This document shows, piece by piece, positions 46 through 34,578 of a stretch of DNA of 64,000 nucleotides. The notes beneath the pieces were generated by a model. That model was not told where the DNA came from, ran no database searches, and worked only from the letters and a program-made list of their open reading frames with translations. Position 1 is the first letter of the stretch. Each line of letters opens with the position of its first letter. Source of the DNA: Lytechinus pictus (lineage: Eukaryota); contig NC_087250.1 in assembly GCF_037042905.1 (NCBI RefSeq), positions 5,210,001 to 5,274,000 on the forward strand, given 5' to 3'. Position numbers and translations under genes: made by a program.

Positions 46-199
46 CAGATACTCCAATTTTTTTCCGAAGAGAGCGTCCTTTAGCGTGGAGCCTTCGATG
101 AGCTCAAGAATAAGATCGAAGCATAAATATTCGGTTCGGTTTCCTTGTTTAAACTTCGAGTATGCATACAGCATAACAATGTTGGGATGTTTGACCAGT
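46..199 (-). CDS. Protein kinase internal exon (subdomains IV-V: LVKHPNIVMLYAY...LILELIEGSTLKDALF)
   Basis: Acceptor TTTTTTTGCAG| before 199 and donor CTG|GTAAGA after 46 on the minus strand. HPNIV and LxLExxxGxxL kinase motifs are present. Splices in frame (GC|A = Ala) to the exon at 7040-7217. The gene continues left of the window. Confidence 0.85.
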
Positions 200-3121
200 C
201 TGCAAAAAAAGAAATGAAAACGCAAATCAGATGGATTCTCTTTCGCAGGCATATGACTAAAAACGCTGATAACTTAGCGCGAGACGCGACTGTTAAATAA
301 ATGCCAACTATTTCATTTCATTTCGTTTATTTCTATTTTCCATTATTACAGTTTTGTACATTTTGACATACAAATAACAAAACATGTTTCAAGTATCCCT
401 GTACAAAAATTATATTCAAGATATCTTGTATTGTTTTTTTACAGATGTGAAATAAATGAATTTGAATTTGAATAAACATATCAGGTTGGAAATGGAGGAG
501 GCTGCTAAAAAGCGGAGCTTGTAGAGTGCAGCCTCCTAATGAATATTTTTGTAGTTACATAGCATGTAAAAATCAAAATAACAACTTGAGCATACCAGTT
601 GAATTAAAAAGAAATAGGAGGAAATTAAAGTAGAAAAGGAAAAAAGAAAAAGAGAGATTAAAGGTCTCCAGAATCCAGCCCCAGTACTCGCAGACGGACC
701 TCGCTGATCAACAGGAAAACGAAAGAGATGGAAAAGTGTACGTCACATGATATTCATGTTTCATTAAAAAAAATACAAGAGTTTGAGTAATAAAGAGTTA
801 ATTCAATGGTTATCTTGGAGAAACTTTTTGAACTTCTATTTGAAAGAATTTAGGCTTTGTGATTCTTTGATGTTATTATTAATAGTTCCCCAGAGTCTAG
901 GGCCTTCAAAAGTAAAAATAGATTTTGCAAGGATGGTCCGGGGTAGTGGTAAATGGAATTCATCTGATTGACGTGTGGGATATTTGTGAAGAGTTTAGTT
1001 TTTGTTAAATGAAGAATTAAATATGGGTGGTAACATGTTATTTTTTAATTGATACATGAATTGACCTAAGTTAAATTGGTACAGTGTTTTTATTTTTAGA
1101 ATGTTATTATTGAAAAACAAGTGATCTGTGTGGGATCTCCAGGACAAGTTGAAAATAACACGCAACGCCTTCTTTTGTAAAAGCAATATTCTATCTAGGT
1201 AGGTCGAGTGTGTATTTCCCCAAACAATTGCTCCATTAGATATGGTAAAATTAACGTTGAATAAAGCATTTTTAGGGAGGAAGTTGGAAGAAAAAACTTA
1301 ACTTTGTTGATAACACCAATATTGCGTGAAATTGTACAACATATAAAGTCATTGTATGTTTTCCAAGATAAGTTGATGTCTATTATGAGACCTAATTTTT
1401 TTGTTGCAGTAACAATTTCAATGTATATATTGTCTAGTTTGATATTAAATGGCATTTGTTCTAAAGAATTGCTAAAAAGCATGCATTTGTTTTTTTGTAC
1501 ATTAGTTGACAATTTGTTAGCCCTAATCCATTGTACCAACTTATCCAGTTCAGTGTTCAGTACATTAATTAAAATATCGGGGTTAGGATGAGAGTAGAGT
1601 ACATTTGAATTATCTGCAAAAAGGACACGACATGATACTTCAGTTAACATCTTGTAGAGAAGAATTTTGTTAATTTATGCTTGCGAATTTGTTTACGATT
1701 TGCGAGGTAGTTTCTGAACCACTCCAAGACCTTCCCACGAACTCCGTAATTTTCAAGTTTGTAAAGAAGTATTTCATGATTTACAGTGTCAAAGGCCTTG
1801 GAGAGGTCCAGAAAAACACCTATTGTATGTTCGAAGTTGTCAATAGCTTTTTGTGATTTTGTCAATAAATGAGAGAGTGGCATGAGATGTACTATATTTT
1901 TGGCGAAATCCTAATTGAAAATCAGAAATTATAGTATATTTATTCAAATAATTTAATAATCTTGTATAGATCACCCTTTCCATAAATTTTAGACAAAGTA
2001 TGCAATAAAGCTATCGGTCTATAGTTACATACATTAATCTTTTCTCCTTTTTTGTGCACTGGTATCATCTTTGATATTTTCATATTGTCAGGCACGACGC
2101 CATTACTTAAAGAAAGGTTAAATATGTATACTAATGGATCAACAATATATTCTATAACATTTTTAATAAAAATATTGTCAATACCATCGTGACCACATCT
2201 TTTGTGTTTAAGTTGTTCACTTTATCTACTGGTACTAAAAATAAAGAATTAGGGTTTGGTTGGTATATGAAATATGTAAATTTCGTTTGTGTTACTGGTA
2301 TATTGTCTGCAAAACTGTTTCCAATTTGTGTAAAGTATTGATTAAATATATCAGCTATACGAAGAGAATCATGAATTTCAACATTATTGTGCTTTACTGT
2401 TTTTATGCTTTGTTTATTTATGGCAGTGTTTATGGTTTTCCATTTTTTATTGATGTCGTGTTTGAAACGAATTAATTGATTCGTGAAATATTTTTGTTTT
2501 TCACTCCGCAATAATTTAGTGAGGGTATTTTTATATGTAGTATATTTACGATGTGACTTTTCTGAGCGATTAATTTTATCGGCATAGTATAAGTTGTTTT
2601 TGCGATTTATTGATCGTAATATTGATTTCGATATCCAAGGAAGTCCTTGACTCTTTTTATAATTATTACATTTACTTACCAACGGTACATGTCTATCTAA
2701 ATGTGAAGTAATTTTTTTCATGAATAAATTACATGCTGTCTTTGTATCTTGAGAACAGAACGCTTCAGACCAATCCGCATCTTCAAGACCATCTTTTAGG
2801 CTCTGTAAATTATTTGGTGTTAGTCGTCGGAATTTATGTTGCGGGGTATTTTTTTTTTGCTTACCTAAACGGAGTTCTTGAAAATATCGGGAAATGGTCA
2901 GAAATATCAGATAAAATTATTCCAGACTCGGGTAAAGGAGAAACATTACAGAAAATATTATCAATAAGGATTGCAGATTGGTCAGTAACCCTAGTGGGTT
3001 TTGTTATCAATGGTAAAAAGGATGATGAAAGCATGATATAAAAAAATTCATGTGACCTATTGTGATTAGATTTAGATATGTCTATATTAAAGTCACATAC
3101 TACATAACAATCTTTATTATA

Positions 3122-4232
3122 AACAAGGCAAAAGCGATTTGTGTCTCGCCCACTTATGAAAATAACTAGAAATATCGTGATTTGCGAGGGCACGCCGCAG
3201 AATTATATCGAAACTTCATTGTGAAATGACTGGGATGGAATAACACTTGTCATAAGAGCCTTGCACGTTAACTCTAATGTTGACAAGAAAAAGACCTTTG
3301 ACCTTACCATGTGACCTCCGACTGCAGCCTAACATGCAGGTCCCCCAAGTCCATCTAGTGTCCAAGTTTGGTTGAAAAGTGACTTACGGTTGCGGAGCTA
3401 GGTGTCATAAGAGAGTCTTGCATGTAAACTTTAACGTTGACCTGAAAATGACCTTCACCTTACCATGTGACCTCCGACTGCAGCATAACATGCACGGTCC
3501 CCAAGTCCATCTACCATACAAGTTTGATTGAAAAGTGACTTACGGTTGCGGAGTTAGGTGTCATAAGAGAGTCTTGCATGTAAACTTTAACGTTGACCTG
3601 AAAATGACCTTGACCTTACCATGTGACCACCGACTGCAGCATAACATGCAGGTCCCCAAGTCCATACCATCCAAGTTTGGTTGAAAAGTGACTTACGGTT
3701 GCGGAGCTAGGTGTCATAAGAGAGTCTTGCATGTCAACTTTAACGTTGACCTAAAAATGACCTTGACCTTACCATGTGACCACCGACTGCAGCATAACAT
3801 GCAGGTCCCCAAGTCCATACCATCCAAGTTTGGTTGAAAAGTGACTTACGGTTGCGGAGCTAGGTGTCATAAGAGAGTCTTGCATGTAAACTTTAACGTT
3901 GACCTGAAAATGACCTTGACCTTACCATGTGACCTCCGACTGCAGCATAACATGCAGGTCCCCCAGGCCATCTACCATCCAAGTTTGGTTGAAAAGTGAC
4001 TGACGGTTGCGGAGTAAGGTGTCATAAGAGAGTCTTGCATGTAAACTTTAACGTTGACCTGAAATGACCTTTCACCCTACCATGTGACCTCCGACTGCAG
4101 CATAACATACAGGTCCCCCAGTTTGGTTGAAAAGAGACTTACGGTTGTGGAGTTATGTGTCATTAGGTTTGTGACGGACGGACGACATTTGGATCCCTAA
4201 GTCTCGCCTTCACCTCTGGTGGCCGAGACAAA
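3122..4232 (+). mobile_element. Helentron/HINE-like non-autonomous element carrying a ~155-bp tandem array
   Basis: 5' GTCTCGCC motif (3143), about 6 copies of a ~155-bp unit, a (CGGA)n microsatellite, and a 3' GTCTCGCC...GGCCGAGAC hairpin followed by an A-run. The LINE endonuclease frame rejoins approximately across it. Confidence 0.7.
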
Positions 4233-4417
4233 AAACGGATTTGTAGAAAATCTTGCAAGTATTCAAAAAAGTAATTTGTGTTGGAGTTAGGAGGTCTATA
4301 ATATACTGCGATCATTATGTTATTTAGAGTTTGGTATCCGAATTTCAATGATATGAGATTCAGCAATTTCATTCATACAATTAAGATCATTGTTAGTAAA
4401 ATATTTTAGTTCATTAA

Positions 4418-4970
4418 AGGGATGGTCCGGGCTAAAAATATTTATATCTTAATACATAAAGTAGAATTAACTGAGCAAAATGCCGAAAATTTCATCAAAA
4501 TCGGATAACAAATAATAAAGTTATTAAAGTTTAAAGTTTACCAATCGTTAGGTGGGCTGATGATGTCACATCTCCACTTTCCGTTTTCTTATGTTATTAC
4601 ATAAAATCATATTTTTTTTCATTATTTCATACTTGTGTGAATAATATGTCTCCCTTATAATGAAATAAGTTGCAGCAATAAATATCTAATGCATTAAATC
4701 AGTTGCCAATCCAATGTTTCTAGTTCTTGGGGGAACATTTTGAATAAACCTAATTTCATATAATAAAATACAAAAGAACAAGTGGGAATGTGACATCATC
4801 AGCACACCTAATGAACATTCATGACGACTGTTTTCACAAAATACTGCTAAACTTTAAAATTCAATAAATTTGTTATTTGTTATCCGATTTTGATGATATT
4901 TTCGGCATTTTGCTCAGTGAGTTCTACTCTATTTATTAAGCTATAAATACTTTCAACCCAGACCACCCCT
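4418..4970. mobile_element. Kolobok-like MITE with TTAA TSD
   Basis: TTAA|AGGGATGGTCCGGG ... CCCAGACCACCCCT|TTAA with a long internal palindrome. Removing it restores the LINE frame GISINELKYF. Confidence 0.85.
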
Positions 4971-5753
4971 TTAATAGAGATACCTACCCCTCCTCCCCGT
5001 CTATTACCCCTGCGGTTTTCTATGAACGTATAACCAGGAAGTGAGTATAAACCATCAGATTCCCGAGATAACCATGGCTCGGTTAACGCAATTATAGACA
5101 TTTTGATTTGTGAAGATGAATCGGTTAAAAGGCGTAAATTGTCGAAATTACTGCTCAAGCTCCTTATATTCATGTGCATTATTGAAAGTGTATTTGCTGA
5201 TTTATCAAGAGAATTAAATTGATTTATTGTAAAATAATTCGAACTTGGATAATAATTGTCGTTATTATCATTTATATCTGCAGCTAAATACATCTCATTT
5301 GATACGATATTTTCAAAAAAAGAATTGTAATTAATATTTTGGGTTTCGTTGTTCGGCCTCAACAAATTGTAAAACTCATCATCATTCAACATTGAAAAGG
5401 AGTAATTTTTAATCACTGGGAATTGAAAGAGAAAAACACGTAATGCAAAAAATCGCTTCCTGTAGAGACCGATGAGACCGCGTGCTCGTGAGTGTCAGCG
5501 AGGCAAGGATCTGGGGAGAAGAATAATTGGGTAAAAAAAAAAATGGTTAAACACATTCCTATGAAAAAAGAGATCACAAACACGTAAAAGTCATCAGGTA
5601 AACATTGGCAATTAAATACGATGTTAATTGCATCGTAAATATGTTGTACTTAATAAGCATAAAAGAATTGGCTGAGCTCCCGTGAATAAAACAAGCTGGG
5701 AAACCTTCCCTATAGAGTAAGATAAGGGATGACACAAACTCAAATTATTAATA

Positions 5754-6261
5754 CCCCCTTTACACCAGATGAAGTTTCCGCTACGTTCTTGAAGTTCAGA
5801 AGCAAACCAACGTGGCGCCAGCATGCACCCATTACACCGGAGGAAGTTCCCGCTACGTCCTTGAAATTCCGAAAAAATTGCAGGGACGTAGCGATAACTT
5901 TCTTGTTTTCAAAAAATATGAAATCGTCCCGAGCATGCTACGTCTGCGCTACGTCCTTGATACGTTCATGGTGCGTTAGTGGTGTTCTTTCCCTGTCCGC
6001 TACGTCTATGTTACGTCGATGGAGCTTTTAGTACGCGATAAGAAGGTCCTTAAGTGCGTCAGTACTACGCACTGCTCAGACGGCGCTCCCGCTACGTGGA
6101 CTTTGGACATGTTCACAGTCACGTGCAGTCATGCAGACTATGCCACGTCAATAACAGTTCTCGCTACGCTCTCAGTACGCTGCAGCAGTTCCCACTGCGT
6201 CATGGCCATTTTTCTTTGACGTAGCGAAAACTGCATGGACGTAGCGTTGGTGTAATGGGGG
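5754..6261. mobile_element. MITE with CCCCC(T/A)TTACACCA TIRs, flanked by TA
   Basis: TA|CCCCCTTTACACCA ... TGGTGTAATGGGGG|TA, with internal repeated CTACGT/ACGTAG motifs. Confidence 0.65.
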
Positions 6262-7039
6262 TAAGGGCATGCTTCCCAGAAAACTGAATGAAGGTGAAAA
6301 GTCATTCGAATGGAGTGGCGGTGTTCGTATATTTTAAAAAAACTTGTACTATCACACCTGGTATACAAATTGTTTGGCTTGTTCGAAATAGCTGTGAATT
6401 GATGAATAAAAAGAATGATCGTCTGAGATCCAGATAATGTTCACACTGAATATCATAAAGTATAGTTGATCTGTCTAAACCATAAATTAACTAAAGCTAT
6501 CTTTTTTTAAAATATAATTATAGAACGGTTAGTGCTTTTACATAACTACGTCCTACGTCTTCAGTGAACAGAGTAGTTAAACCTCTACATGACGAATTAC
6601 AAAGTTCTTTCCTCTTTTGTCCTTATGATTAATAATGAATATTTTTTATTTTTCTTCTTCAAAACAACAGAAAGAAAATTTTGCAGTCAAGAATAAGTCT
6701 TTGTGAACAATGTACAAGCATGGCATTAAAATGTACGCAAGGGTTCTATTGACAAGATTGTCATTGAATCCAAAATTCGAAAATAAATCCGGAATGGCCA
6801 GTTTACTGGATATATTAGAATTCATCAAGGTCACGTCGCTGGTTTGTTTGCTCTTTATAATCAAAGGAGTTACAATAATACATTCCTTTTTTATTCCAAA
6901 ATAAACCGTGAAATTATAAAAAAAAAGTCCCACCAGCACCTAGTATACAAAATATTTATCTTGCTCATGTGTATACATTTCCGGTGATTAATTTATGAGA
7001 TGCAAATATTTTCAGTCCCTTTAAATACGACAAACTTAC

Positions 7040-7217
7040 GCATTTATCTTGATCTCCTTTACCAGATCCAATGCAATCTTATCTTCAACACACTTTACCC
7101 GTTTTACGGCCACCTTTCTGCCATTCCAATTTCCCTCGTACACCTCCCCGTATCCTCCAGAAGAAATCAGGTCTAAGGTTGATACTTCGTACTCGGATTT
7201 ACCAATTTCTTCGATTT
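7040..7217 (-). CDS. Protein kinase exon (subdomains I-III, TKL-like: LISSGGYGEVYEGNWNGRKVAVKRV...KEIKINA)
   Basis: Gly-rich loop, VAVK lysine and alphaC Glu are present. Acceptor TCATCTTTTTCAG| (phase 1) and donor GC|GTAAGT (phase 2) match the exon at 46-199. Confidence 0.85.
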
Positions 7218-7519
7218 CTGAAAAAGATGATTTAGAAATGTACACAAATTTTGTTAGATAATATTTCATACACAATATACAGCATATGGGTTGTTGCGTC
7301 TAGCCAAATGTGGAAAATAATTATCACAGTCTCCCTTGCATAACAAAAGAACTGTATCCAAAGCTCATTGTGAAATGTGAAATCAATAATTTTTATGCTA
7401 CTCCATTTCCTTATCCGCTTTCCACCGTTCTCCAACCAGGGCTAAAATAATGTCCGATTTTAAAAGATAAATTCTGTTTCAAGGACACATGTAAAAAGTA
7501 CTTAGTATAAGTGTACGAA

Positions 7520-7900
7520 TCATACATGAGCCGCGGTTCAGACCATAGCAGAGCAGCGCTGGGCCGCCAAAGCTTCCCCGTGCGCGCCTGCAGCTAGAGT
7601 CGAGCTCAAAGACCTTATAATATATTACTAGACCAAAAGCTGCGTGCGCGTTCAGCACAAAACAAATGAGATTAGGCTCCGCCTACCGCGATCATTTGAA
7701 GACAAAAATAAGCCCTCATTGACATTCATGAGCATGAAGATATTCATAATCCGGCCTTTTCATTGGCTAAGAGCGTCATTAATACGCGATTTCCCCGATT
7801 CTTTGTCATCGATACTAGTGGTATCGTGTTACAGAATTAATTATTCATTTGACCTCATTACGTCATCTAATTTATTCATTCTGAAACTTTTCTTTCCACA
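7520..7900. promoter_or_regulatory. CpG-enriched promoter-like segment with an inverted CCAAT box
   Basis: Local CpG/GC enrichment in an AT-rich background and ATTGG at ~7763. It lies directly upstream of the exon-1 candidate at 7907. Confidence 0.4.
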
Positions 7901-7906
7901 CACAAA

Positions 7907-9960
7907 ATGGACCTACGAACACTCCGGTGAGTACGTATTAATTGATATAACCACATGAATTCAGTGGACTATTTACACATTTCACACTGTATTTTGTGAT
8001 CTTAGGTTATTTGTTTAACAAATTAGAGAGTTTGCTATTAATCTTCTGTTAAAAGAAAGCAGAATTTGGTCTTTGAAATTGAAGTTAGATTGTCATCGTC
8101 GCCCAGTGCAGCCTGTATGTTGCTTGCAGTGTTGTGGTTATGCCGTTATGCCGCTGTGTTAACCACATGTATTTTGTACGGGCTCCTAGCCGGCTGGGAA
8201 TCGAGAGATAATCGGGCTGGTTTGGTTCACCTCCAACAATAAGGACCAACCCACGATTGATTAAAACAAGAAGAATGAGGCTTCTTTTTGTACACTGTAA
8301 CGTTAGATCTAGAGGGAGATCTGCATCTATCTTCAGTAGATCGAGACTCAGTCAGGAATAAACTGTGAAGCGGAGTATGGATGAAGATACGCCTGTCATT
8401 ATGTCAATCCTCACTTTGTTTCAGATATCAAATTTATTTTGCATAACTTCAGGCTTCTGCATTTAGCCCCCACCCATTTTAACTCTATTGTTATTTATAA
8501 ATATAGTTAGACTCGGTCTTAGAAATAACATGCTGCTCTGCATGTTTGTCTTATTATCAATAGATCTGGGGCCTAGATCTTCTTAATCCTAGGCCCTACT
8601 TACTTTATACTTAGATCTAACGTTAGGCTACTTTTATTACTTTTATTTATTCATCGATGCTATCAAGACAAGAGCTAGGCCTACCTAATTCAAATCTAGT
8701 CTAACTTATACTTTCCCAACCCTCGGCCTCGACACTTACTCCCAGGGCTTATGATCTAGGTCTGTAATTTAGGCCTAGATCTAGGTCTGGGCCTAAACGA
8801 CTCCATTTACATGTACGAGTATGACTGTCAGTGGACCAAGGACTAGATCTAGATCTATAATGGCAATGAAGTCTTAGCCAGGAATAAAAGTCAGAGTCAG
8901 ACATCAAAAATTTCTTAACCGATATAGGGTCTAGATCTCGGTTTAGAACCGAAGCTTTACTTTCTAGGTCTAGATAGATCGAGAGTCCATCGTTAGTCTA
9001 GATCTAGACCTAATTTAGATAGGACCTACATGAATGCTGTCGCACAGCACTGAGTCTTGTTGGACTAGATCTGGACTAAATAGATCTAGACCTAGTGCAT
9101 GAGATTATGAAATTATGTTAAAATCAAATGAAATAAGATTCGGAAATAAAAAGATCCAGATTTTTTTTTTAATTTTTTTTTTTTTTGGGGGGGGGGGCAG
9201 ACATGTGAAAAATTTTAGAGAAACCTAAAATTCAGAAAGCGAGGGCCAGAAGCGACCAATACTACCTAGGGCCGTTTTGTGCATTTTCTAAAGTAAAATT
9301 GAAGGATGTCATGCAATTCTCTTTTTGATGAAGGTTTCACATTTCAGCTCTTACCCAAACCCCTCCCCCTATACATACGGCCATGAAAAAGATCACTTCT
9401 TATTATTGTTCTCTTTTCTTTCACAAACAGGTTGAGTTTGAAGAACAAGAAAAACAGTAGAGGTCTACCTATATGGTTCAAGATGATGATCATAAGTGCA
9501 TGCATCATTTTGCCGATTCTCATCCAGGTATAAAACTTAAACTAACCCATACAAAATTACAGATACATTACATGCATTGAATGTTAACCATGTTTACATT
9601 AAATAAAAATTATCCGAGCCACAAAGAGGTAGGATCTGTAATGAATATAGACACTTCTTAAATATACAGGCTCTCGAGTCTAAAATAGAACCAATGCCAA
9701 AAGTTATGTACCTTGGGCAAATTTATAAAATACCGGTAAGGTCATGTCCTTGATCTACTAGTAATTAAATGGCCTTTTTATTTCCTATTTGTTTTAAACA
9801 AAGCAATATCTATTTTCCATATTTTACAAAAATGTATTTTATTCATTCTTTAGTGTGATATTCATATTTCATATTTGTAGATTTACGATTTTTTCTAAAT
9901 CTTGTTATTTTACATTTTGTCCAATAGGATGATGCAGTTTTACAATTTCCATGGAGGTGA
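7907..9960 (+). CDS. Candidate spliced small ORF, 49 aa (exons 7907-7926, 9431-9527, 9928-9960)
   Basis: CAAAATGG start context. Splice sites CG|GTGAGT, ACAG|G, CAG|GTATAA and AATAG|GAT. The frame stays open across three exons: MDLRTLRLSLKNKKNSRGLPIWFKMMIISACIILPILIQDDAVLQFPWR. A further donor lies after 10047 and an acceptor before 10508. Confidence 0.4.
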
Positions 9961-13565: not shown

Positions 13566-13607
13566 CCCTTCTTTCTCTAGGCCTACGACCATCTCCAGCT
13601 CCAGAGT
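13566..13607 (-). CDS. Candidate 42-nt phase-1/phase-1 micro-exon (DSGAGDGRRPRERRG)
   Basis: Acceptor TTCTGTTTATTTAG| and donor AGGG|GTAATT. Open in phase 1, length divisible by 3. Confidence 0.35.
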
Positions 13608-16243: not shown

Positions 16244-16417
16244 CCTCTGGCATGGTGGGAGTAGATTTTTGGGCACCGGAAGACAGACTCGTATCAGATT
16301 CAGTTGCATCTTTAGGAGCTGAATTGTCGGGAAAGGAAAATGGTGTGTCTTCTGTGGTAACTGGTCCCGTACCTGGTTCTGGTGACTTTAACTTTGGTGC
16401 TGGAGGATGGTGTTCTC
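16244..16417 (-). CDS. Candidate 174-nt phase-1/phase-1 exon encoding a Pro/Ser/Thr-rich linker (GEHHPPAPKLKSPEPG...STPTMPE)
   Basis: Acceptor CTTCCTCCAG| and donor GAGG|GTCAGT. Open frame with higher GC than the flanks, and its phase matches the NACHT exon donor. Confidence 0.6.
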
Positions 16418-17934: not shown

Positions 17935-18654
17935 TTAGGAATATATATATAGGTATATAGCGGGGGATGCTGATTAGTGCCAAGATATATGATCCTTTTC
18001 AAAGATTTTTTTTCTTCCAAGATATATCATTTATTTAGGTGTTTGAAGACATTTTTACGAATAGACCCTACATTAGAAAGAAGAACAATAGCTGATGAAG
18101 TTTATCGCATGATAACCATCATTGGCAAATACTCTATCATGGGCATGATGAGTGAAGTCTGTGAAGAGCATTATTAAACAAAAGAAACTGATGAAAGATT
18201 GGATTGCATTTTTTTTGTACAGAATCTCCATCGTAATATCATGATAGGCTAATTTTTTAAATCTTTTTGAACCTTATTCGATATTTTTTAAATTAAATTA
18301 TATATATTTACTACCTGCTGCCATTTCATGTTTAAAATGTAATAATAATTCAATTTTGTAGGCATATATGATAAGGGGACATCCCGATAGACCGCGGGTC
18401 CGATAGACCGCGGGTCCGTTAGACCGCGGGTCCGATAGACCGCGGGTCCGATAGACCGCGGGTCCGATAGTCCGCGGGTCCGATAGACCGCGGGTCCGAT
18501 AGTCCGCAGTGTGTGTAAAATTATGATCAGATATATCAAATGTCATCGAGAGGTCCAAAGGTCAAATGATACGAGGCCATGGGGTTCTATCAGGTGCGGA
18601 TCCATGGAGGGCCGAGGGGGGACTGCCTCACCCCCCCCCCACCCCCAGCTCCCA

Positions 18655-19358
18655 AAAAAAGAGGGGGGAAGAGGGGAAAAGGGAGAGAATAAAAAAAAAG
18701 AGGAAGATGGGAAAAGAAGAGAATAGAAAAGAGGGTAAGAAGGAGAAAGGAAGAGAAGAAAAAGGGGAAAGGAAAGACAAAGAAAAAAGGGAGAAGAAAA
18801 GGGGAAAGAAGAGGGAAAAAAGAGGAGGGAAAAGGAAGAGAAGAAAAGAAAGGAGAAAGGAAAAGGAGGAAAAAGAAGAAAAAAAAGAGGAACGAAGAGA
18901 AGAATATCTAAATAGAGAGGAAGATGGGAAGAAAGATAAGAAAAAAGAGAGAGAGAGGAAGAGGGGAAGAAGAGAAGAAAGAGAGAGAGGGAGGAAGGGG
19001 AGAGAGAGAAGAAAAAATATTAAAAGAGAAAAAAGGGAGAAGGAAGAAAAAGAAAAAGGGAGAAGTTAAGGGGAAAAGAAAAAAAAAGTGGAAGAGGGAA
19101 AAGAAAAGAACGGAGTAAGGAAAAAGGGAAAAGAAGAAGAAAAAAGAGCGAGAGTAAGTGGGAAGAGAGGAAAAACGAGAAAAGAGGGAAAGAAAAGACA
19201 GCAAAAAGAGAAGAAAAGGGGGAAGATGGGGGAAAGAGAAGAAAGGGGGGAAAAGAAGAGGGGGAAAGAAAGAGAGAAAGAAAGAGAAAGGAAGGAAGGG
19301 GAATGAGGATAAAAGAAAGAAAAAAGAAAGAAAAGGAGATGGGAAACGGAAGAGGGAG
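18655..19358 (+). repeat. Near-pure polypurine (GA-rich) low-complexity tract
   Basis: About 700 bp almost exclusively A/G. It is the source of spurious K/E/R-rich and F/L/S-rich ORFs. Confidence 0.9.
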
Positions 19359-19368
19359 ATGTTGACCT

Positions 19369-19527
19369 GGGGAGTGTTTCATCAACATTTTCATCCGACA
19401 AGTTTTCAGATCTGACATCTTTCTCTGATGTTGATTGGCTGAGAGGTACTGTTACTATGGTAACTGTCGGATGAAATGGGACTTGTCGGATAAAACGTCC
19501 GACAAGTCCTTTCATGAAACGCCCCCC
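19369..19527. mobile_element. Short Harbinger-like MITE flanked by CTG
   Basis: CCTG|GGGAGTGTTTCAT ... ATGAAACGCCCC|CTGG. Confidence 0.55.
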
Positions 19528-20068
19528 TGGACGTCGATTTGATGGCGCCAAAATGACGTTCGAACTATGGGGCGCCGAATTGATGTTCGATCTAGCGGGG
19601 CACCAAATTGATGTTCGAACTAGAGGAGCGCTAATTTGAATTTTGACCATAATGCGACAAATACATGTTTCAGAGAGGGGAGGGAGGGCAAAGTTATATT
19701 TCACATGATGGGGGTGCCAAGTTTATGTTCAACCGAGGGCGCCAAATTGACCTTAAACTTAGAGGGCTTCATGCAAATTCATTTTCGACCGGGGACGCAA
19801 CATTGCCTGTTTATAGTAAAATATATGTCCTGCCAAAAAACTTCAATTAATGCGGCTGAATTAAAATATCCCGTTCTTACGATAACAGAAAAAAAAATGT
19901 TTTCGAGTTTTAAGTCTGTTTAGCGAGATAGATACCCTGTTCAGGGTCACAAAAAAGGGTTATTGTCAAATTCAGCTCGCGCTACGCGCTCGCAATATTT
20001 GATTAATGAGGTATGCATCCTCTGCTTCAATCCCACATGTAAGTGTTAGTGTTTTTCAAGTCAACATA

Positions 20069-24020: not shown

Positions 24021-24603
24021 AGGAGAATGAAACTCTTGAAACTAGCTGAATCCATATCAAAGAGAAAAATCTAAGAAACATATTGTTGAAAGTTTGAGGA
24101 AGATTGAATGAATAATAAGAAAGTTATGAGCATTTGAATATTGAGATCACTAGTGCCATGTAGATCCTCCCATCGGCAATGCGACCAAGATCTGTGATAT
24201 CACACACGTACAACTCCCTCATTACTTTAGTACTTATTTCACTTATATTCTCACTTTTATAGAGTCTTTCACAAGGTTAGGTGTTTTCTTTATGAGATGA
24301 CAAGTACAGAGGTTTCACAACATTATATCATTGATGAATCGTTTGTCATATGATTAGAATGAGCAAAAAGAGATGTTTTGGGGTATATTTTCAGTGTCCG
24401 AATGGGAGAGTTGTACGTGTGTGACATCACAGATCTTGGTCGCATTGCCAATGGGAGGATCTCCATAGCATTAGTGATCTCGACATTCAAATGCTCATAA
24501 CTCTTTTATTGCTAGTCCTATTTTACTCAAAGTTTTGTTGATCTTATTCTTAGATTTTTCTGCTTTCACAAAAGCTAACTTGCTCCAAGAGTTTCATTCT
24601 CCT
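24021..24603. mobile_element. Kolobok-like MITE with TTAA TSD
   Basis: TTAA|AGGAGAATGAAACTCTTG ... CAAGAGTTTCATTCTCCT|TTAA with long inverted arms. Confidence 0.85.
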
Positions 24604-26908
24604 TTAATGGATAATACTATACAGATTGTGATGTCAAGCGTTGATCTCAGATGTAAATAATGCATTATAGCCATCGCGGCGAGATTACCGGTTGTAACAG
24701 GGCCCTTTGTTAGCGCAGTGTTAGTGAAATGTTACGCTAACAGCGTTTCTGTGCGGCCGATACTGGTCTTTTAGAGATTGTTTTATTTACATTATAGAAG
24801 AAGACTTTGTAATTAATTTTCAAACTTCTTTTCGCTTTGATTGATTATGTATAAATAAATATATATATATATAGCTTTTTTTCTCTGTCTTTTATCGAAA
24901 TGGTACAATAATTTTCTTGTGTTATTTGTAGTAAATGTGTTAAAGCAAATCAAAAAAGAATTGCTCTGTATTTTTTTCAAGCATGGGTTCACATACATGT
25001 ATACTGTACTGGAGACTCTACGATGACATAAGAAGACTCAAATGAGAATTCAATAAATTGGGAGTGTTCTAAATGTCTACTTTAACACCTTCCAAATTAT
25101 TTAGAAAATAATTCAGACCCTGATGTTGATGACTCTACCAAAACTTATCCAAAATATGACACTAAAAAAATCTTTAGAATATGAAGAAGTTACTAGTAAG
25201 GAAATAAAATTTGTTCATATGAATAGACAGTGTAACCTTTCTAAAAAATTACGAGGAAATAAAGCAAATTCTTTTGTTAAATAATATTAATTTTCTCGCT
25301 CTAATTGAGACTAGATTACATTTGTTCCACATTATGGACTGCTAAGAAGAGACAGGAATAGAAATGGAGGTGGAGAGGCTATTTATGTTCACGAGTCTAT
25401 CCAATTTGATGCGCTTAGTCACTCTTCGTTCATGTCGTTAGAACATCTAGAAGCTTTATGTATAAGATTTTGTTTTAAGAACACAAAAGCAGTTTTATTT
25501 GTAAATTGGTATAGGCCACCAAATTCCAAAATTGAACTGTTTAGTTTTTATGAGGACCTATGTTAATAGTTTCAATTGTCAGCTCATCATTATGGGCGAT
25601 AGAAACTTTGATATAATGAAAAACATTTTGAAGGATATACAAATTAAGGCCTATAATCAAATCGATGATATACATTATTTGAAACAGGTAAATAAAATGC
25701 TGTATACCAAAGTAACTGACATATCTTGCACTCTTGTTGATCATATACTAACTGATTGTCTTGATAAAATAAACTCGTATGGTATTATTCAGAATGGTAT
25801 GACTGATCATTATGCCAGTTATCTGGTATGTAAAGGTAACAAACTTGTTCAGAAGAAACGTTTATATCGTTCAGAAAGTCGGAAAATGTTGACGTGAAGG
25901 CTTTCAGGATGGATTTACATAATCGAAATTGGGAGAAATTCAAAGAATGTAGTAACGTCAATGATGCAACTAATGAATTGGAAAGATTGCTTCTAGAGGT
26001 AGTGAACAAACATATGCCAATAAAGACAAGAAGAGTAAGAAGAAAGCAATCCCCATGGATGAACAATGAAATACTGTCATTAATGAAACAGAGAGATAAA
26101 GCAAAAGTCACCACTGAGATAAGGAAATCTAAGCGGAAACATATCTTTGAAAGGTTATCTGAAGTTACCAATATAAATGAGTCTTGGAAAACATTTAAAA
26201 TTAATATGGGCAATGATTGTAATTCTTGTAGAAGCGCTTTCCCTAAACAAAATTCAAATGATTTTGCTTATGAGTTTAATGATCATTTTGAAAATATATC
26301 TTCTAACATTGGTAGTACTCACAACAAAGCTAAGAATAGACTCGATTCTCAGAATATTAGGTCTCGTAACAGGAAATTTAATTTTTTATATGTATCGCCA
26401 TCTAGTCTCTGGGAGCATGTAATGTCAATGAAAACTAAAAAGTAAGCTGGTTTAGATGGAATTTCTATGTTTATTATCTAGGAAATGTTACCTGAAATGA
26501 TTGAACCCTTTGCTTATTTGATTAATAAATCCTTATCGGAAGGGATAGTGCCAGACAAATGATGTGGAAAAAGTTATGCCCATACACAAAAAGGGAGACA
26601 AATTAGAACTACAGGCCGATCTCGTTGTTGCCTTGTGCCTCTAAAGTTTTGGAAAGAATAGTTCAAAGACAGTTACTCGATTATTTGATGATGTATTCCT
26701 TGCTTTGCCAAAATCAGTCGGGATTTTGCCCAAAACACTCGATTGTAACCGCACAAGCCACAGTCACAGATGACTGGTTCAACGCAATAGATAGTGGCTC
26801 CTATGTTGGCACTATTTTCGTAGATTTGCAACAAGTGTTTGACATGGTCGACCACTTCTTTTTCTAAGCTTGAGTCTATTGGTGTCAAGGGTATAAAAGA
26901 ATTACAAT

Positions 26909-29900
26909 TAGTCCGGATTATAATTGAACAAGGTGCCACTCGGAGGAGAAATTTTCATATAATGCTTCTAGACCAGTTTTTTTTACGCTGAATATGAATA
27001 TATGAGGTAAACAGGCTGTATCCTGAAAATTTACCTGTGAGGACGCTTTTTTCAAAATGGCCGCTGAATTTTCGTACGTAGATTTTGACATAAGCATTCA
27101 ATTGCCATTAAATTAGTGTCATATGAAAGCCAAATAAATTCCCTATAATTTGGTACTATTTATAGGGGATAAATAAATCATTTGGCTGAGATTGTAAGTA
27201 GAAAACTGCATTTTTTGTAGTTTTTCCCCAAAAATTTGAAATTTTGCAAATACATGATTTTACATATTTCTAAAAAAAATGAATGAATTACCTTGAAATG
27301 TTCCAGAAAACTTTATTGATATACTATTATCATGTGGATGAAATTCCAACTCCATATCATTTTTAAAGCAAATGTATAAGGTATCAAACTTGAATTATTC
27401 AATATCAGAAATGTCGCTTTTTGTATGCATTTCCATAGACTAATACGTATACCATGTATAATGCATGTATGTATAATGTATACAGGTAGTTAATAATTAA
27501 ATGCAATTTCCGCTTTTTAATCACTTGGAGAGTTAAGAGTAGGCTTTTCTCTATCAGCTATACATAAAAAATGTTGGCACATCGAGGTCTGACCCTCTCA
27601 TGGGGATGGGGGTGTCGAAGTCACCCCCCCCCCCTGCCCTTTGCTATATCATGTTGTTGTACACTGTTGTATATTGCCTATTTGTTGGAAAAATAATTTT
27701 TTTTTTTTTTGGAGCACCCATGGAGGCCAAAACAGGCATTTCTGCTATATTGTACAGCCACTTTGATTGCTTTGAAACCACTTGGAGAGGAAAGAGTAAG
27801 CTTTGTTCTACCAGCTTCATCTAAAGAAGTGGCATATCGAAACCTATCCCCCTCGGGTGGGGGAGCTTTTACTTAATATTGCCAATTTATTAGAAAATTC
27901 ACAATTTTGGACCCAACATTGAGACCAAAAAGCGTTTGTGCTTTGTTGTACCCCCCATTTTATTGATTTGAAACCACTTATAGAGGAAAGAGTAGAGTTT
28001 GTTCTACCAGCTACAATAAGCGCTGGTACGTTGAACCCTAGCCCTCTCAGGGGTTGTCTAAGTCAGCCCCCCCCCCCCTTCTATATCATGTATATTGCCT
28101 ATTTTATTGGGTATTTCACCTCTTTGGATAACCCATTTGAGGCAAAAGCGTATTTCTACTATATAGCACAGCCAATTTTATTTTCTTGCAATGACTTGGA
28201 GAAGAAAGATTAGGCTTTGCTCTATCAGCTACACATAAATAGGTATTGGCAATCGCAGCCTATCCCCTTAAGAATGTTCAGGGGGCTGTATAATTTACCT
28301 TACCAATTTTCGGTATTTGACTATCTATTAGACATTCACAATGTTGGATCACCCATTAAGGCAAAAGGGCGTTTCTACTATAGTACAGCAAATTTTCTTT
28401 TCTTGCAATGACTTGGAGAGGAAAGAGTAGGCTTTGCTCTATTAGCTCCATATAAAGAGGTGTTGGCCAACACGCGGCTGTTAAAGTTACCCCACTAATT
28501 TTTGGTATTTGGCTATTTGTTGAAAATTCACAAATTTGGAGCCCCCATTGAAGCAAAAAGCATCTCTGATATCTGATATATAGTTCTGTCACTTTTATTG
28601 TCTTGAAACCACTTAGAGAGGAAAAAATTGACTTTGCTCTATAATCTATAAAGATGTGCTGGTAAATAAAAGCCTACCCCTTCTGGGGGCTGTTGAAATC
28701 ACCCCCTCCCTCCTTTGCATTATTACCTATTTATTGGAAAATTCACAATTTTTAGCCCCATTGAGGTAAAAAGGCAACTCTGATATACAGGGTGAGTCAG
28801 AAAAAATGTCCCACTTTTGTAAAGTTGAATTGTTTAAAATATGAATATTTAATCATTAGTTTCATGATATGTCTTGATAGACGTATCCTCCAAGTACATT
28901 CAGGTACCATTTTCATTTGATCCCGTGCACGTATGACTGAACATCGGACAATCTTTAGAAGACTGTCAGATCTCACTTGCGCCAAGTTACTGGGTGATGA
29001 ATAAAACAGTGCTTTAGACAAAGACAGTCAGACAGACAGACTGGCATGCTCACACACACACACACACACACCCCCACACGCTAACACACACAACACACAT
29101 GGTAATAACCGGTTCATAATTTTCTCTTTTCTGATTAAGCATTGATTTTTAGCAAGATCGCTGAATGAACTTTGGGGGAAACAGATTCATTGTTGAACCA
29201 CAATAAACTACCTCAACAAATACAAAAATTCCCTTTTAATTGTTTGTGTTTTTATTCACCGACGTTTGCAGTAATTGTGTGCTTGTGTGTCTGTGTGTGT
29301 GTGCGTGTGCTTGTGTGTGCATGTTTGAGTGGGTCTGTCAGTGCGTGTGCGTGTGTGTGTGTGTTTGTGTGTGCGTACGTGTGTGTGTGTTTGTGTGTGT
29401 GTGTTTCAGTTTGTCGGACTGTCTTTGTTCAAAAGAGTGTTTTATTCCCTACCCTGTAACTTGGCGCAAGTGAGATCTGACATTCTTCTAAAGATTGTCC
29501 GCTGTTCAGTCATGCGTGCAGGGGATCAAATGAAAAAGGTACCTGAATGTATTGGGAGGATACCTCTATCAAGACATATCATGAAACTAATGATTAAATA
29601 TTCATATTTTAAACAATTCAACTTTACAAAAGTGGGACATTTTTTCTGACTCACTCTGTATCTTATACCTCAATGGGTGATCCATAAATGGTGAAATTTC
29701 CAATAAATAGGCAATATACATAGAGAAGGGGGGGGGGGCTGACTTAGACATCACCTAGGAGGGCTAGAGTTCGATATGCGTGCGCTTATTTATGTAGCTG
29801 ATAGAACGAACTCTACTCTTTCAAATCAATAAAATGGGGGTGTACTATGAAGCACAAACGCTTTTTTGCCTCAATGATGGGTCCAAAATGGTGAATTTCC

Positions 29901-30900
29901 AAATAAATTAGCGATAAGCAAAAGCGGGAGGGGTTATTTCCACAGCCCTCCCCCCCCCCCCCGAGAGGGGTAGGCTTCGATGTACCACTTCTTTTGATGT
30001 ATCTGGTAGAACAAAGCCTACTCTTTTCCTCTCCAAGTGGTTTTAAAGTGGCTGTACTGTATGCCAGAAATGCCTTTTGCCTCAATGGGTGCTTAAAAAA
30101 TAGTGATTTTCCATTAAATAGGCAATATACAACAACATGATATAGCCACGGGGGGGGGGGGGGGGGGGGATTCGACACCCCACCCCCTGAGAATGTTAGG
30201 CTTTGATGTGCCAACATTTTGTTTTGTGTAGCTGATAGAGAAAAACCTGCTCTTAACTCTCCAAGTGATTAACTAGCGGATATAATTGCATTTAAGTTTT
30301 AACTATGCATTATACATACATGTATTATACATGTTATACGTATTAATCTATGGAAATGTATACAAAAATCGACATTTCTGAAATTGAGGTTTTCAAGTTT
30401 GATACCTTATAAATTCGCTAAAAAGAATGATACAGTGTTGGAATTTTATCCACATGATAATAGTTAACCAATAAAGTTTTCTGGAACATTTCAAGGTAAT
30501 TCATTCATTTTTCTTAGAATCATGTAAAATCATGTATTTGCAAAGTTTTTAATTTTTGGGAAAAAATCACAAAAAATGCAGTTTTCTGCTTTAAATCTCA
30601 GCCAAATGATCTAATTATCCCCAATTAATAGTACCAAATTGTAGGGAATTTATTTGGCTTTCATATGACACTAATTTTATGGCAATTAAATGCTTATGTC
30701 ACAATCTATGTACGAAAATTCAAATTTTCGGAAAATAAGGCGGCCATTTTGAAAAAAGTGCCCTCACAGGTTAATTTTCAGGATACAGCAGTATACCTCA
30801 TATATTCATATTCAACGTAAAAAACTGGTCTTGCCTAGAGGCACTTTATGAAAATTTCTCCCTCTCCGAGTGCCACCTTGCTCAATTATAACCCGGACTA
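26909..30900. mobile_element. Academ-like non-autonomous DNA transposon (TAG...CTA termini, 3-bp TSD, >1-kb inverted arms)
   Basis: AAT|TAGTCCGG ... CCGGACTA|AAT. The arms are inverted for over 1 kb and contain ~200-bp subrepeats. Excision restores the LINE RT frame. Confidence 0.85.
28788..29658. mobile_element. Tc1/mariner-like MITE (TA TSD, ~250-bp TIRs, CA/TG microsatellites)
   Basis: TA|CAGGGTGAGTCAGAAAAAATGTCCCAC ... GTGGGACATTTTTTCTGACTCACTCTG|TA. Confidence 0.85.
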
Positions 30901-32701
30901 AATAGTTTGTAAACTATTTATCTAACAGGAAAATTAGAACTTGTATCAATAATGTACTTTCTGTAGAAAAGGCGATTACGAAAGGTATTCCACAAGGTTC
31001 TTTACTGGCACCGCTGTTGTTCATCATTTTTTTAAATAACATAAATTTTCATCTTTATGCAGATGACACGGTCATTCATTATTCGCATAAAAATTCGGAA
31101 GTTTTGGAAAATGTACTAAATAAAGTGTGTAAAGATCTGGTAACGTGGATGAATAATAACAATTTAGAGATCGATTACGAGAAAACTATATGCATATTGC
31201 TTGGAACAGGCAGCATGCTTAAAAACATCTTCTGAATATAAAACTTTAAGATCAACAGCTGTCTCAGGGAAATTTCTCGGTATTCATGTAGATGATAAAT
31301 TACGATGGGAAGGTCAATGGAAAGATGTGTAGCAAGATAAGTAAAATGGTCGGTTATCTAGGTAGATTAAGACAGTATGTGAACATGTCTGAAATTGAAT
31401 TGATATTTAAATCTATCTTATTACCCCATTCCGATTATGGAGATGTAATCTGGCAGTCTACTAGCAAAAATTGTTTATCACAACTGCAAAAAATAAAAAA
31501 CATTGCTGGACGGATAATACAAAAGGTTAACCCATACTCTCATACTTGTACGAATCAAATTCACAGCCGCCTTGGCTGACAAACTCTATTTGTCAGGCAA
31601 AAACCCTCCTACTCTTCACTTTTAAAGTATTGAATAACTTGACCTTAAAGTACTTGAAAGACAGATTCAGTCTAAAATCTCTTCCATATTCCCTCCAAAA
31701 TTTTAACATGATTACATTACCTAAATCAAATTCAAATTATGGTAAAAGAAAATTTGGATACAGAGCTTCCTCAGAATATAATAGATTACTCACTAATCTG
31801 GGTCAACTTCCCACTCTAACTAACTTTAGAAATCATCTTCATGAACTTCATGCACCATAGTTTTTATTAAGTTGTACCTCTTGTTTATTTATATATATTA
31901 TTTTGATATAATTATGTTTTACTTTATTTTATTTTAGTTTTGTTTTGTAATTCGTTATATCATTATCAATGGATTATAGATTTCATTTTATGATTTGTCA
32001 TATTAAATGTCTTACATTGCACTGGCCCCAAAGAAGACCAGCAGCAACAATTATAGTTGCAGGTGAATATGGGCTACCAGCCGTAGTTTTATCTTGCTTG
32101 TATATACTTTACCTTTTTATTTGTAAAATTGTATATTTTTATCTTACGGAAATAAAAACAAGACAAACAACCATTTCGTCCAATAACCAGTTGGTTCAGC
32201 ATTTTTTTTTGTACATATACCATTTGGTCTAAATGAACTAAGTATTAATTTGGCAAAATGAATGAAAATAAAATGAGTAATATACGAAATGGTTATGAGA
32301 CGAAACGGTCATAGACGAAGTGATTATGGGACCAAATGGTTATTGGACTAAAATCACTAAATTAATGGTTGTAAGACGACACGATGGAAGGGATGGCATT
32401 AGACTAAATGAAGGATCGTTGTAGCAAGAATTGCGTTTAAATGTAACCTAAAAAAGGCGATCTGAATCAAATAAACGGGGACATTTTGTTGTAACAACAA
32501 TAAAATATACACTATGAACTTCATAATGTTTTTTTTTTTTGGGGGGGATAAATAATTCGGCTAAGAGACATTTTCAGATTTACTAATTTTAAGAATTCTA
32601 AAACGTATAAGTGGTAAACCTATTAAGATAATCACATATCATGAGAATGTATTACCATATTAGCTCATGCAATGTATAAATTGATAAAAAAAGCAACTCA
32701 C

Positions 32702-34578
32702 CGCCTCTTGCCGGCCTTTTCCCCTTGACTATGATGCTGAGTTTCCTTACGCTCTTTTGCGTATGAGGTGGCTGGGAAGAATCTCCAGGGGCGGTTTCTT
32801 CATATTCGTAGTCGATGTTGTTCTTTTGGGGCAGACTGTCTTGTATCTTACGGGGGACGTCTAAAACTTCTATCTTTAATTCGTCAGTTGGAGATGCAGG
32901 ATGATCTGTAGCGTGTTCTAAGAAGTAGGCAAGAGATCTGGTCAGGATGTCCGATGGGGACAGGATCTGTAGCCTTTTTACCAATGGATGCAGGACACCA
33001 TTAAGACGACCATTACTTCTTGATTCGTAGTTCAAAGCAAGAATGAACTCGACCATGTACTGGTACTGCCCATCACCGGCTTTCCAATTGATTCCTTCCC
33101 CTTCCTTTGCATGTAGGCCGACATCTTTTTCGTAGGCCAAGGTAAGACCAACCATATGGCATACGATAGCCCTTGCCGCGTCGATGGACTCTCCACAAGA
33201 AAACTGAATCAAATTTCGAAGGGAATATGCATCATCCATGGAGCGTATATTATGGAGACTTGTGTGAAATGATTGTTTCTCTTCGTTGTTTCCATGGAGG
33301 AGTTTGGAGAAGCGTTTAGCAGCAATCCTCTGCTGAAATGGCCCATTGAGAAAGCTATAGATCTTCCCTTCACTTGCTTCATGAGTAGAAGGAATTAACT
33401 CCTCATGAACAGATTTCACCAAGAGTCCTTTACGAATTCCATATGTAAGTACGTCTTTTTTTAACTCCCCACAAACATCAAAGTCGCTTTCACACAGGTG
33501 AAATTCTTCTTGCTGACCGTCCTTCAAATAGCGATTGAATGCTACGACTGACAAATGCGCCATCGTTTGGTCTTTCGAGAGTGTAGGCCTCGTCCCAGTC
33601 TGGGTACGCATGTTGCTTTTCAGCGAGCTTGGACTTGAGACTGAATGTTCGATTGGTTCGGTATTCAGAGATGGATCTGAATGCCTCATGATGCAATCGA
33701 TGGACTTGTCTATAAATGCAGAACTAGTTTTTAGCTCACCCAGTGATGCAGGATTATCATTCCATTTCAGGATCTGGCACATTATGCACAGGAGCACTGG
33801 TGACGCCACCATGTCACGAAGCAATTCTGTGTTCTCAATATATTCCTTTACCTTTAACCCAAAGTCTTCTCTCTTGTCGAACACCTTCCCAATGTAGGTA
33901 CCAACTGAGGTTTTACTTATTCCCTCCACTTTCACATGGTCATAATTTCCATACACTTCACGGAAATCCCCGATCCCACCGGATTTCGTGGCAACCAAAA
34001 CGGTTAGATGTTGAAATTCTCGAAGGAGAACCATATCTTCGAGGGAGCTCGAATTCTGCTCACACACCGGCTGACCAGTCCTTTGCAATTTCATGTAGTG
34101 GTCAAGGATAACCAATATCTCATCGGCGCTTTCTTTGCACATATTCTCGATACCCTCCGGAGTGAAACTGGTGTTAGCTGGCAAACATTGCTTTTTTATT
34201 GCTTGGCCGAGACCAGTTCCAATTTCAACTTTCACTCCGTCAATGTAAAAAACAAGGCTGAAATTCTTCATTGGACCTTTGTTTTGACACCATTGGGATA
34301 GCCACATCTTGATTTCGGTTGTTTTACCGACGCCAGATGGACCAAAGAAGAGAATTCTTGTCTTATTGAAGTGGGGACCCTGAAAAACGTCGTTGGCCTC
34401 TATCTCCGGCATCCGCGGACGATCTGGGGTGATTTCACTCTTCTTCAGAATTACCGGGACATGAAGATCTTCAACACTATGAATTTGGGAATCCGTAGAA
34501 GGAAGGAGCGTTATTTTTAATGCATTGCCATAATGCATGTATTGTTGTTGTAACTGTTCCCGACACATTTCGATTGGC
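32702..34578 (-). CDS. NACHT-domain exon of an NLR-like (STAND NTPase) gene
   Basis: Uninterrupted ~625-codon frame with Walker A ILFFGPSGVGKTT, Walker-B position ILVILDHYMK, VLVATKS, ASPVLLCIMC and winged-helix-like YSFLNGPFQQRIAA. Acceptor polypyrimidine...CATTAG| (phase 2) and donor GGCG|GTGAGT (phase 1). Confidence 0.9.

Follow-up and report, generated by a model that had tools for sequence, protein, structure and literature searches.

Does a sea urchin genome encode an NLR-like protein in which a C-terminal protein kinase takes the place of the leucine-rich repeats (LRRs)? The question is raised by a 64,000-nt stretch of Lytechinus pictus DNA (the window; C6:5210001-5274000, where C6 is contig NC_087250.1 of an 811.7 Mb assembly in 368 contigs), in which a first-pass annotation of the bare sequence had joined NACHT, linker and kinase exons into a single possible gene. 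Animal NLRs are thought to signal via separate adaptors and kinases that are recruited by death-fold domains. We find that the window, as judged from sequence, holds five central coding exons of a predicted minus-strand gene that extends past both window ends. The explanation that we favour overall, with moderate confidence, is an intact copy of a NACHT-kinase gene whose kinase would signal via oligomerisation of the NACHT module.

An exon chain shared with an annotated paralog

The seven coding exons from the NACHT exon onward are given here in the order of the transcript; coordinates are those of the window, and exons beyond its left end carry window-equivalent negative numbers.

32702..34578, minus strand: NACHT exon, 1877 nt, 625 codons, entered in phase 2 and left in phase 1, AG/GT borders
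16244..16417, minus strand: linker exon 1, 174 nt, phase 1/1, rich in Pro, Ser and Thr, AG/GT borders
13566..13607, minus strand: mini-exon, 42 nt, phase 1/1, encoding DSGAGDGRRPRERR, AG/GT borders
7040..7217, minus strand: kinase exon 1, 178 nt, from phase 1 to phase 2, AG/GT borders
46..199, minus strand: kinase exon 2, 154 nt, from phase 2 to phase 0, end of the N-lobe and hinge, AG/GT borders
-12276..-12383 (C6 5197724-5197617), left of the window: kinase exon 3, 108 nt
-12900..-13346 (C6 5197100-5196654), left of the window: kinase exon 4, ending in a stop codon

The five exons inside the window had been placed at these positions and in these phases by the first-pass annotation, and all of them are present, each with an AG acceptor and a GT donor. 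Its extent for the gene, 46..34578, proved right for the exons but too narrow at the borders. The NACHT exon lies in a stop-to-stop frame of 664 codons on the minus strand (32652-34646), and the start of the kinase lies in minus-strand frames at 7036-7299 and 7-273, which carry the glycine loop SGGYGEV, the VAVK motif and HPNIV. Spliced in silico, the seven exons form one open frame of 992 codons. If the NACHT exon donor at 32702 is skipped, the frame stops 16 codons further on.

The best guide to this chain is a paralog on the same contig. L. pictus LOC135154507 (XP_063956828.1, here P0004) is an 'uncharacterized protein' of 1097 aa with NACHT, NLRC4_HD and Pkinase domains; its locus at C6:5610407-5651300 is about 390 kb from the window, and these two loci are the only ones in the L. 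pictus genome with the NACHT-kinase family. In tblastn searches, P0004 matched the NACHT exon with 82% identity (P0004 residues 102-738), linker exon 1 with 56% (residues 746-797), kinase exon 1 with 75%, kinase exon 2 with 84% (residues 869-919), and kinase exons 3 and 4 in the left flank with 86% and 82%. The 42-nt mini-exon is below the length that tblastn can detect and was compared by translation instead: DSGAGDGRRPRERR aligns with ESGDGVGRRPIQRR of P0004, which itself comes from a 42-nt exon.

The P0004 protein was rebuilt exactly from its own locus by script, using GT-AG introns. Its exons measure 1910/171/42/172/154/108 nt and those of the window copy 1877/174/42/178/154/108 nt, the last exon excluded; exon order and phases are identical, and the length differences are all multiples of three. 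This exon-for-exon match, together with fused models in two further sea urchins and the 992-codon frame, bears out the NACHT-linker-kinase reading. The caveat that the matching phases could be chance is refuted by the homology of the linker exon and mini-exon and by the same phases in the annotated paralog.

Fused NACHT-plus-Pkinase models, which the first-pass annotation had suggested looking for in echinoderm proteomes, exist in three species: the L. pictus paralog, L. variegatus LOC121417768 (XP_041467436.1) and Strongylocentrotus purpuratus LOC754455 (XP_030849513.1, here P0159; 1113 aa). Pfam recognises NACHT, NLRC4_HD and a full Pkinase domain in the paralog and in the orthologs, P0159 among them. 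The fused architecture is thus already known, as unnamed and uncharacterised RefSeq predictions, and is not in itself a new discovery. What is new here is that the gene has a further, seemingly unannotated copy, that the N-terminal cassettes of this copy are duplicated, and that the NACHT and kinase parts of the copies stand in a mosaic relationship. The mini-exon is probably optional, because the L. variegatus model is without it.

The two L. pictus copies share the order of domains (N-terminal helical domain, NACHT with its helical domains, linker, Pkinase) as well as that of exons, and their amino-acid identity is 82-86% in the NACHT part and 82% in the kinase. They differ in that the introns of the window copy are much longer (16 kb from NACHT to linker, compared with 1 kb in the paralog), and in that it has two tandem N-terminal cassettes, a C-terminal tail that is shifted, and a NACHT exon that lacks 11 codons close to its end. 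At the nucleotide level the two copies differ by roughly 10%. Aligned over the NACHT part, P0004 pairs with the L. variegatus protein (92-93%), and the window copy stands apart (79-86%). Over the kinase it is P0004 that stands apart (82% and 77%), the window copy being nearest to the L. variegatus protein (86%). This mosaic could reflect gene conversion, chimerism of the L. variegatus model or a fast-evolving P0004 kinase.

By homology, the full gene is rather likely to have 10 to 12 coding exons and to encode a predicted product of about 1,100-1,200 aa. The order that we propose runs from an ATG exon through one or both N-terminal cassettes to the NACHT exon, two linker exons and four kinase exons.

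Some S. purpuratus records at the related locus are irregular. In the older model XP_011679536.1 (P0006), the C-terminal part of the kinase is garbled and repeats a segment that resembles exon 2; in addition, there are short kinase-only records (P0023, P0160 and P0161). Together they suggest either that kinase exons have further copies near LOC754455 or that the assembly of this region contained old errors. Two Logan-derived S. purpuratus cluster members, P0162 and P0163, were considered as support for the exon junction and set aside: both stop at the donor of the NACHT exon, where they show read-through residues, and are therefore unspliced or genomic.

Predicted modules of the protein

The NACHT exon encodes a pre-NBD segment, the NACHT NTPase, and helical and winged-helix domains. 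Its match to Pfam NACHT (PF05729) scores 44.8-45.1 bits against a cut-off of 26.7 and covers profile positions 3-165 of 167. The NLRC4_HD family scores 18.6 bits in this exon, below its cut-off of 25, and 26.0 bits in P0004. Walker A motifs follow the pattern GxxxxGK[ST] and Walker B motifs the pattern hhhhD; the translation contains GPSGVGKT and ILVILD.

Fold was assessed on an AlphaFold model of the paralog P0004 (43-row alignment; mean predicted local distance difference test score, pLDDT, of 79; predicted template-modelling score, pTM, of 0.60). The model begins with a four-helix N-terminal domain and a structured pre-NBD segment, followed by the NBD and helical domains to about residue 660; beyond that come a few strands, a disordered stretch (737-805) and the kinase. 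The equivalent of linker exon 1 has a pLDDT below 50. The top Foldseek match of the model is autoinhibited NLRC4 (4kxf; E 8e-19, about 580 columns, query TM-score 0.39, 18% identity), and the next are NLRP3, NOD2 and NAIP5. The paralog is thus predicted to adopt the NBD-HD1-WHD-HD2 fold of solved NLRs.

No LRR exons had been recognised between the NACHT and kinase exons in the first-pass annotation, and this observation stands. The 115 minus-strand open reading frames (ORFs) of at least 40 aa between 7218 and 32701, those overlapping 18900-19100 left out, gave no Pfam match at E<=0.01. No LRR family was found by Pfam in the homologous proteins P0004, P0005, P0006 and P0159.

The kinase is spread over four exons. 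Kinase exon 1 carries the SGGYGEV glycine-rich loop, the VAVK lysine and the alpha-C glutamate (KEIKI), and the left-flank exons carry HSDIKSDN, DLG and PPE. Scored exon by exon with the Pfam profiles of the eukaryotic protein kinase superfamily, PF00069 and PF07714, kinase exon 1 matches PK_Tyr_Ser-Thr at positions 5-54 with 17.1 bits, below the cut-off, which is to be expected of a 58-aa fragment. Exons 3 and 4 match Pkinase at positions 103-130 (29.0 bits) and 139-259 (49.9 bits, cut-off 31.7), and exon 2 falls between the segments of exons 1 and 3, so that the four exons tile the kinase profile. In P0004 the kinase match reaches 135.8 bits and extends from position 3 to position 259 of the 263 in the profile.

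The catalytic set of protein kinases consists of the beta3 Lys, the alpha-C Glu, HxD...N, DxG and (A)PE. These residues are conserved in all four proteins compared (the window copy, P0004, P0005 and P0159), and HSD in place of HRD marks a non-RD kinase. The domain is apparently a non-RD kinase of Ser/Thr type with all catalytic residues present, and is predicted to be catalytically competent. Against PDB sequences, the top of the best 60 matches comprised the Src-Abl ancestor, NEK1, CTR1, STK24/25, TAK1, PAK1 and ABL1 (E 1e-16 to 4e-14), and no RIPK or IRAK was among the matches listed. By structure, the P0004 kinase matched BRAF (target TM-score about 0.86), Abl and TGF-beta receptor 1. These similarities would place it diffusely among TKL/STE/Abl-like kinases, in no clear subfamily.

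P0004 has about 101 residues ahead of its NACHT exon, and these have no counterpart inside the window. Candidates for the missing 5' end lie to its right, and are listed with the ATG exon of the paralog (coordinates are window-equivalent unless given for C6).

About 101,665: candidate ATG exon of the window copy, 90% identical to that of the paralog, with the same length and donor
71616-71384 and 70622-70544, minus strand, right of the window: cassette A, two exons, open, phase 2-2
67158-66923 and 66086-66008, minus strand, right of the window: cassette B, two exons, open, phase 2-2
C6:5651300: ATG exon of the paralog, ATG plus 11 nt, GTAAGT donor

The cassettes are each 312 or 315 nt long, repeat with a tandem period of about 4.5 kb and are 75% identical to each other; their identity to the N-terminus of P0004 is 56% (A) and 46% (B). 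The N-terminus and the linker are the most diverged parts of the protein. Each cassette enters and leaves in phase 2, so that either one, or both in series, would join in frame to the NACHT exon, which is entered in phase 2. Tandem, frame-compatible cassettes could be spliced alternatively or serially, giving receptor variants with differing partner specificity. The ATG exon of the paralog was not within the first 2 kb upstream and was found in sequence further out. If the candidate ATG exon near 101,665 is used, the whole gene would span about 115 kb.

Models of the N-terminal domain have four helices (pLDDT about 69-80; 69 for a cassette alone) and no recognisable death-fold (CARD, PYD, DD or DED), and the N-terminal 101 residues of P0004 gave no usable match in the ESM Atlas. 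Arrays of short tandem and inverted units rich in TTCGGAATTACGAACC-like words occur at window-equivalent positions of about 72.6-73.4 kb and 78-82.4 kb. Such arrays are common to the upstream regions of both gene copies, including the sequence upstream of the paralog's ATG exon.

Proposed mechanism and competing explanations

NLR-type NACHT modules are nucleotide-controlled oligomerisation switches. In the mechanism that we propose, nucleotide-dependent oligomerisation of the NACHT module would gather the tethered kinase domains, which would then trans-activate one another and phosphorylate downstream targets, by induced proximity via the flexible linker. The fast-diverging N-terminal cassette would be the end that binds a partner or cue. 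A signalling step of the NOD-plus-RIPK2 kind would thus be placed in one polypeptide. The mechanism predicts that kinase activity depends on the Walker A lysine of the NACHT module and on oligomerisation, a prediction open to direct test; L. pictus serves as a laboratory species.

Several observations weigh against this picture. The mechanism itself is argued by analogy, and no sensor domain was identified in the predicted protein. Many NACHT proteins have acidic residues after the Walker B aspartate, and such a pair is not evident in ILVILDHY. At the 5' end, some 30 kb separate the cassettes from the candidate ATG exon upstream of them, and either cassette may be the one in use. Neither cassette had a Pfam match when both were scanned, and comparison of the N-terminal fold with 48,161 PDB representatives gave best Z scores of 6.1 and 5.7, a range common for helical models. 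The ratio of nonsynonymous to synonymous substitution rates (dN/dS) against the paralog is only moderate overall, at 0.52 over 958 codons, and reaches 2.7 in the 51-codon linker. Of the four coding indels relative to the paralog, three preserve the frame, with sizes of 33, 3 and 6 nt as judged from the exon lengths; the fourth, of 4 nt, shifts the last five codons and turns the conserved ...(L/S)(T/S)V(S/N)E end into an 11-residue tail. No RNA dataset was listed as containing the NACHT exon of the window copy.

Protein databases are likewise silent. A set of 5.8 billion protein clusters held no protein from the exons of the window, as searched with the NACHT exon among proteins of 365-1162 aa and 1163-3320 aa and with the last kinase exon among those of 260-2000 aa, the latter returning only P0005 (90%) and P0004 (82%). 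Since no database protein derives from its exons, the window copy may have no annotation, or one that marks it as a pseudogene.

The absence of a database protein, with a same-contig paralog that is annotated, is also what a young pseudogene would leave. The window copy would then be a recently silenced or unexpressed duplicate of a functional LOC135154507 whose structure is still intact. The frame-shifting 4-nt indel, the overall dN/dS, the 11-codon deletion and the greatly enlarged, repeat-filled introns fit such a history as well. Against it stands, above all, the open frame of 992 codons. In neutral simulations of substitutions (2000 runs each), the frame remained open in 10.4% of runs at 2% change per site, in 0.65% at 4.5% and in 0% at 9%; the middle value corresponds to about half of the observed divergence from the paralog, and indels were not counted. 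All 14 splice sites of the seven exons are canonical, Walker A and all kinase catalytic residues are kept, and the sole frameshift comes after the last kinase-domain motif. Nor is the window copy more diverged from the S. purpuratus outgroup than P0004 is (identity 61% vs 65% in the NBD and 52% vs 51% in the kinase). Partial dN/dS values are 0.49 for the NACHT part and 0.405 for the kinase over 281 codons. On balance, we regard a silenced duplicate as unlikely, though it deserves to be taken seriously.

A different doubt concerns what the kinase is for. The gene could be expressed with its kinase serving as an integrated decoy or sensor for pathogen effectors, in which case the N-terminal domain or the NACHT oligomer would provide the output. 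Kinase domains integrated into plant NLRs offer a precedent, the C-terminal position is the usual sensor position of NLRs, and the kinase is located where the LRR sits in NLRC4. C-terminal PKinase domains of fungal T-NACHT proteins have been interpreted in this way (PMC12258605). A decoy would be expected to mimic something, however, and no close free-standing kinase was found: the best in the L. pictus genome and in a library of 1.84 billion representative proteins are 32-37% identical. The conservation of catalytic residues in the four compared proteins and the kinase dN/dS of 0.405 also argue against a decoy, as does the lack of a repeat or other sensor, whereas the fungal cases keep a three-part architecture. 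We therefore consider a decoy a minority possibility, of about the same standing as a silenced duplicate.

It is very improbable that two genes are present, one with NACHT alone that ends after 32702 and one for the kinase that starts at about 7300-7650, with phases that match by chance: the early stop behind an unused 32702 donor makes a NACHT-only isoform possible and there is an in-frame ATG at 7269, but the linker exon and mini-exon are homologous, in the same phases, to those that join NACHT and kinase in the paralog, and the last kinase exon matched no kinase-only protein of 260-2000 aa, only the fused P0004 and P0005. The features that had seemed to allow a separate kinase gene do not hold up. 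The ATG at 7269 lies in the acceptor region, and in the paralog a length difference of 2 nt puts it out of frame. Most of the promoter-like island (7520-7900) is a high-copy interspersed repeat (7606-8100), and the GC content is only 0.36-0.47. The first-pass annotation had also seen no Met between the acceptor and the glycine loop, and kinase exon 1 indeed has none at all.

An intact NACHT-kinase gene is thus the reading that we retain. Its introns hold the following repeats.

310..3000: intronic multi-copy repeat, with 74 other genome matches listed at 87-95% identity
7606..8100: interspersed repeat in an intron, about 495 bp long; at least 39 further copies, 98-100% identical, are spread over many contigs of the genome
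60059..63702, plus strand: degenerate non-LTR retrotransposon (LINE) in the long 5' intron, with PHD, AP-endonuclease and reverse transcriptase over three frames

The identity among its copies suggests that the element at 7606-8100 is very young. Matches to the repeat at 310-3000 break at about 1641-1643 (310-1643 and 1641-3000), and the two parts occur next to each other at many loci, a pattern suggestive of two abutting elements; its ORFs at 2152-2916 and 1195-1674 had no Pfam match. In the LINE, Pfam RVT_1 scores 69.1 and 63.2 bits and Exo_endo_phos_2 29.1 bits. A minus-strand ORF at 39096-39953 (285 aa) was considered as an extra exon and rejected: it has no Pfam match, and its DNA is a dispersed repeat, for which 56 further matches show 66-96% identity. 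At 18288-19722, both strands carry a cluster of open frames that overlap one another in several frames, which suggests low-complexity or repetitive sequence.

Origin and comparison with known systems

P0004 was scored against the 1.84 billion representative proteins, and the best 150 were examined. Among these, the P0005 cluster alone matches P0004 over both the NACHT and the kinase part. Local phmmer comparison of the listed representatives and P0005-P0008 showed that the match was confined to the NACHT part in 18 others and to the kinase part in 131, and Pfam scans of 33 of the 149 other representatives revealed no further NACHT-plus-kinase protein. The nearest NACHT relatives outside the family, at 29-32% identity, are an L. 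pictus Death-NACHT protein, an S. purpuratus NACHT-LRR protein ("NLRC4") and an Asterias Death-NACHT protein ("NLRP3-like"). The nearest kinases, at 35-37%, belong to Diadema proteins with the architecture MIB_HERC2-ZZ-SH3_15-Ank-Pkinase.

These relationships suggest a probable origin of the family within sea urchins, from NLRs of the echinoderm Death-NACHT(-LRR) type that gained a kinase most like that of echinoid Mib/ankyrin-kinase proteins. The simplest route would be exon shuffling in echinoids, by which an NLR would have lost its death domain and LRR and gained the kinase. Tentatively, and as a proposal that we find plausible but short of probable, camarodont sea urchins would have a small protein family of their own, derived from NLRs, with a catalytically competent non-RD kinase in place of the LRR, making a self-contained STAND sensor-switch-kinase unreported in animals, with the cassettes of the second copy spliced alternatively or serially.

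Searches of full-text literature found no animal NACHT-kinase protein described: the NACHT-kinase fusions that they turned up are only fungal or bacterial, and the NLR-kinase proteins only from plants, with supplements and subscription papers outside the search. The identifiers LOC754455, LOC121417768, LOC135154507, XP_030849513, XP_011679536 and A0A7M7T2R2 occurred in 0 papers, supplements again outside the search. If the proposal is true, the STAND-plus-kinase design of fungi, bacteria and plants would have an independent animal counterpart in sea urchins, which would amount to a natural experiment in the shortening of an innate-immune pathway.

Plant NLR-kinase integrated-domain receptors have an NB-ARC module and retain the LRR, and their kinase is read as effector bait. 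They share with the sea urchin protein the fusion of a STAND immune ATPase to a kinase, and differ from it in that the sea urchin protein has a NACHT module and no LRR. Among animal NLRs, the modelled NACHT module of the paralog shares its fold with NLRC4, NLRP3 and NOD2 over about 580 aligned columns. Closest in proposed signalling logic are NOD1 and NOD2, which signal by recruiting the kinase RIP2 (PMC3879445, PMC13133943). Compared with NOD1-NOD2/RIPK2, the sea urchin kinase is covalently attached, in cis; the protein is without LRR or recognisable death-fold, and its kinase shows no evident RIPK-specific affinity.

Fusions of NACHT and kinase are also found outside animals. Bacterial and fungal NACHT proteins with kinase effector domains are described in a preprint (bioRxiv 10.1101/2022.07.19.500537), and nine fungal T-NACHT NLRs of the Chaetomiaceae and Podosporaceae carry a C-terminal PKinase, read as an integrated decoy derived from CHK2/PRD-4 (PMC12258605). 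The fusion and the C-terminal position of the kinase are common to these fungal NLRs and the sea urchin protein. The fungal proteins keep the full three-part architecture and a CHK2/PRD-4-like kinase, whereas the sea urchin protein is without repeats and has no close free-standing kinase. Because the sea urchin NACHT groups with echinoderm NLRs, the sea urchin fusion and the fungal and bacterial ones would be independent in origin.

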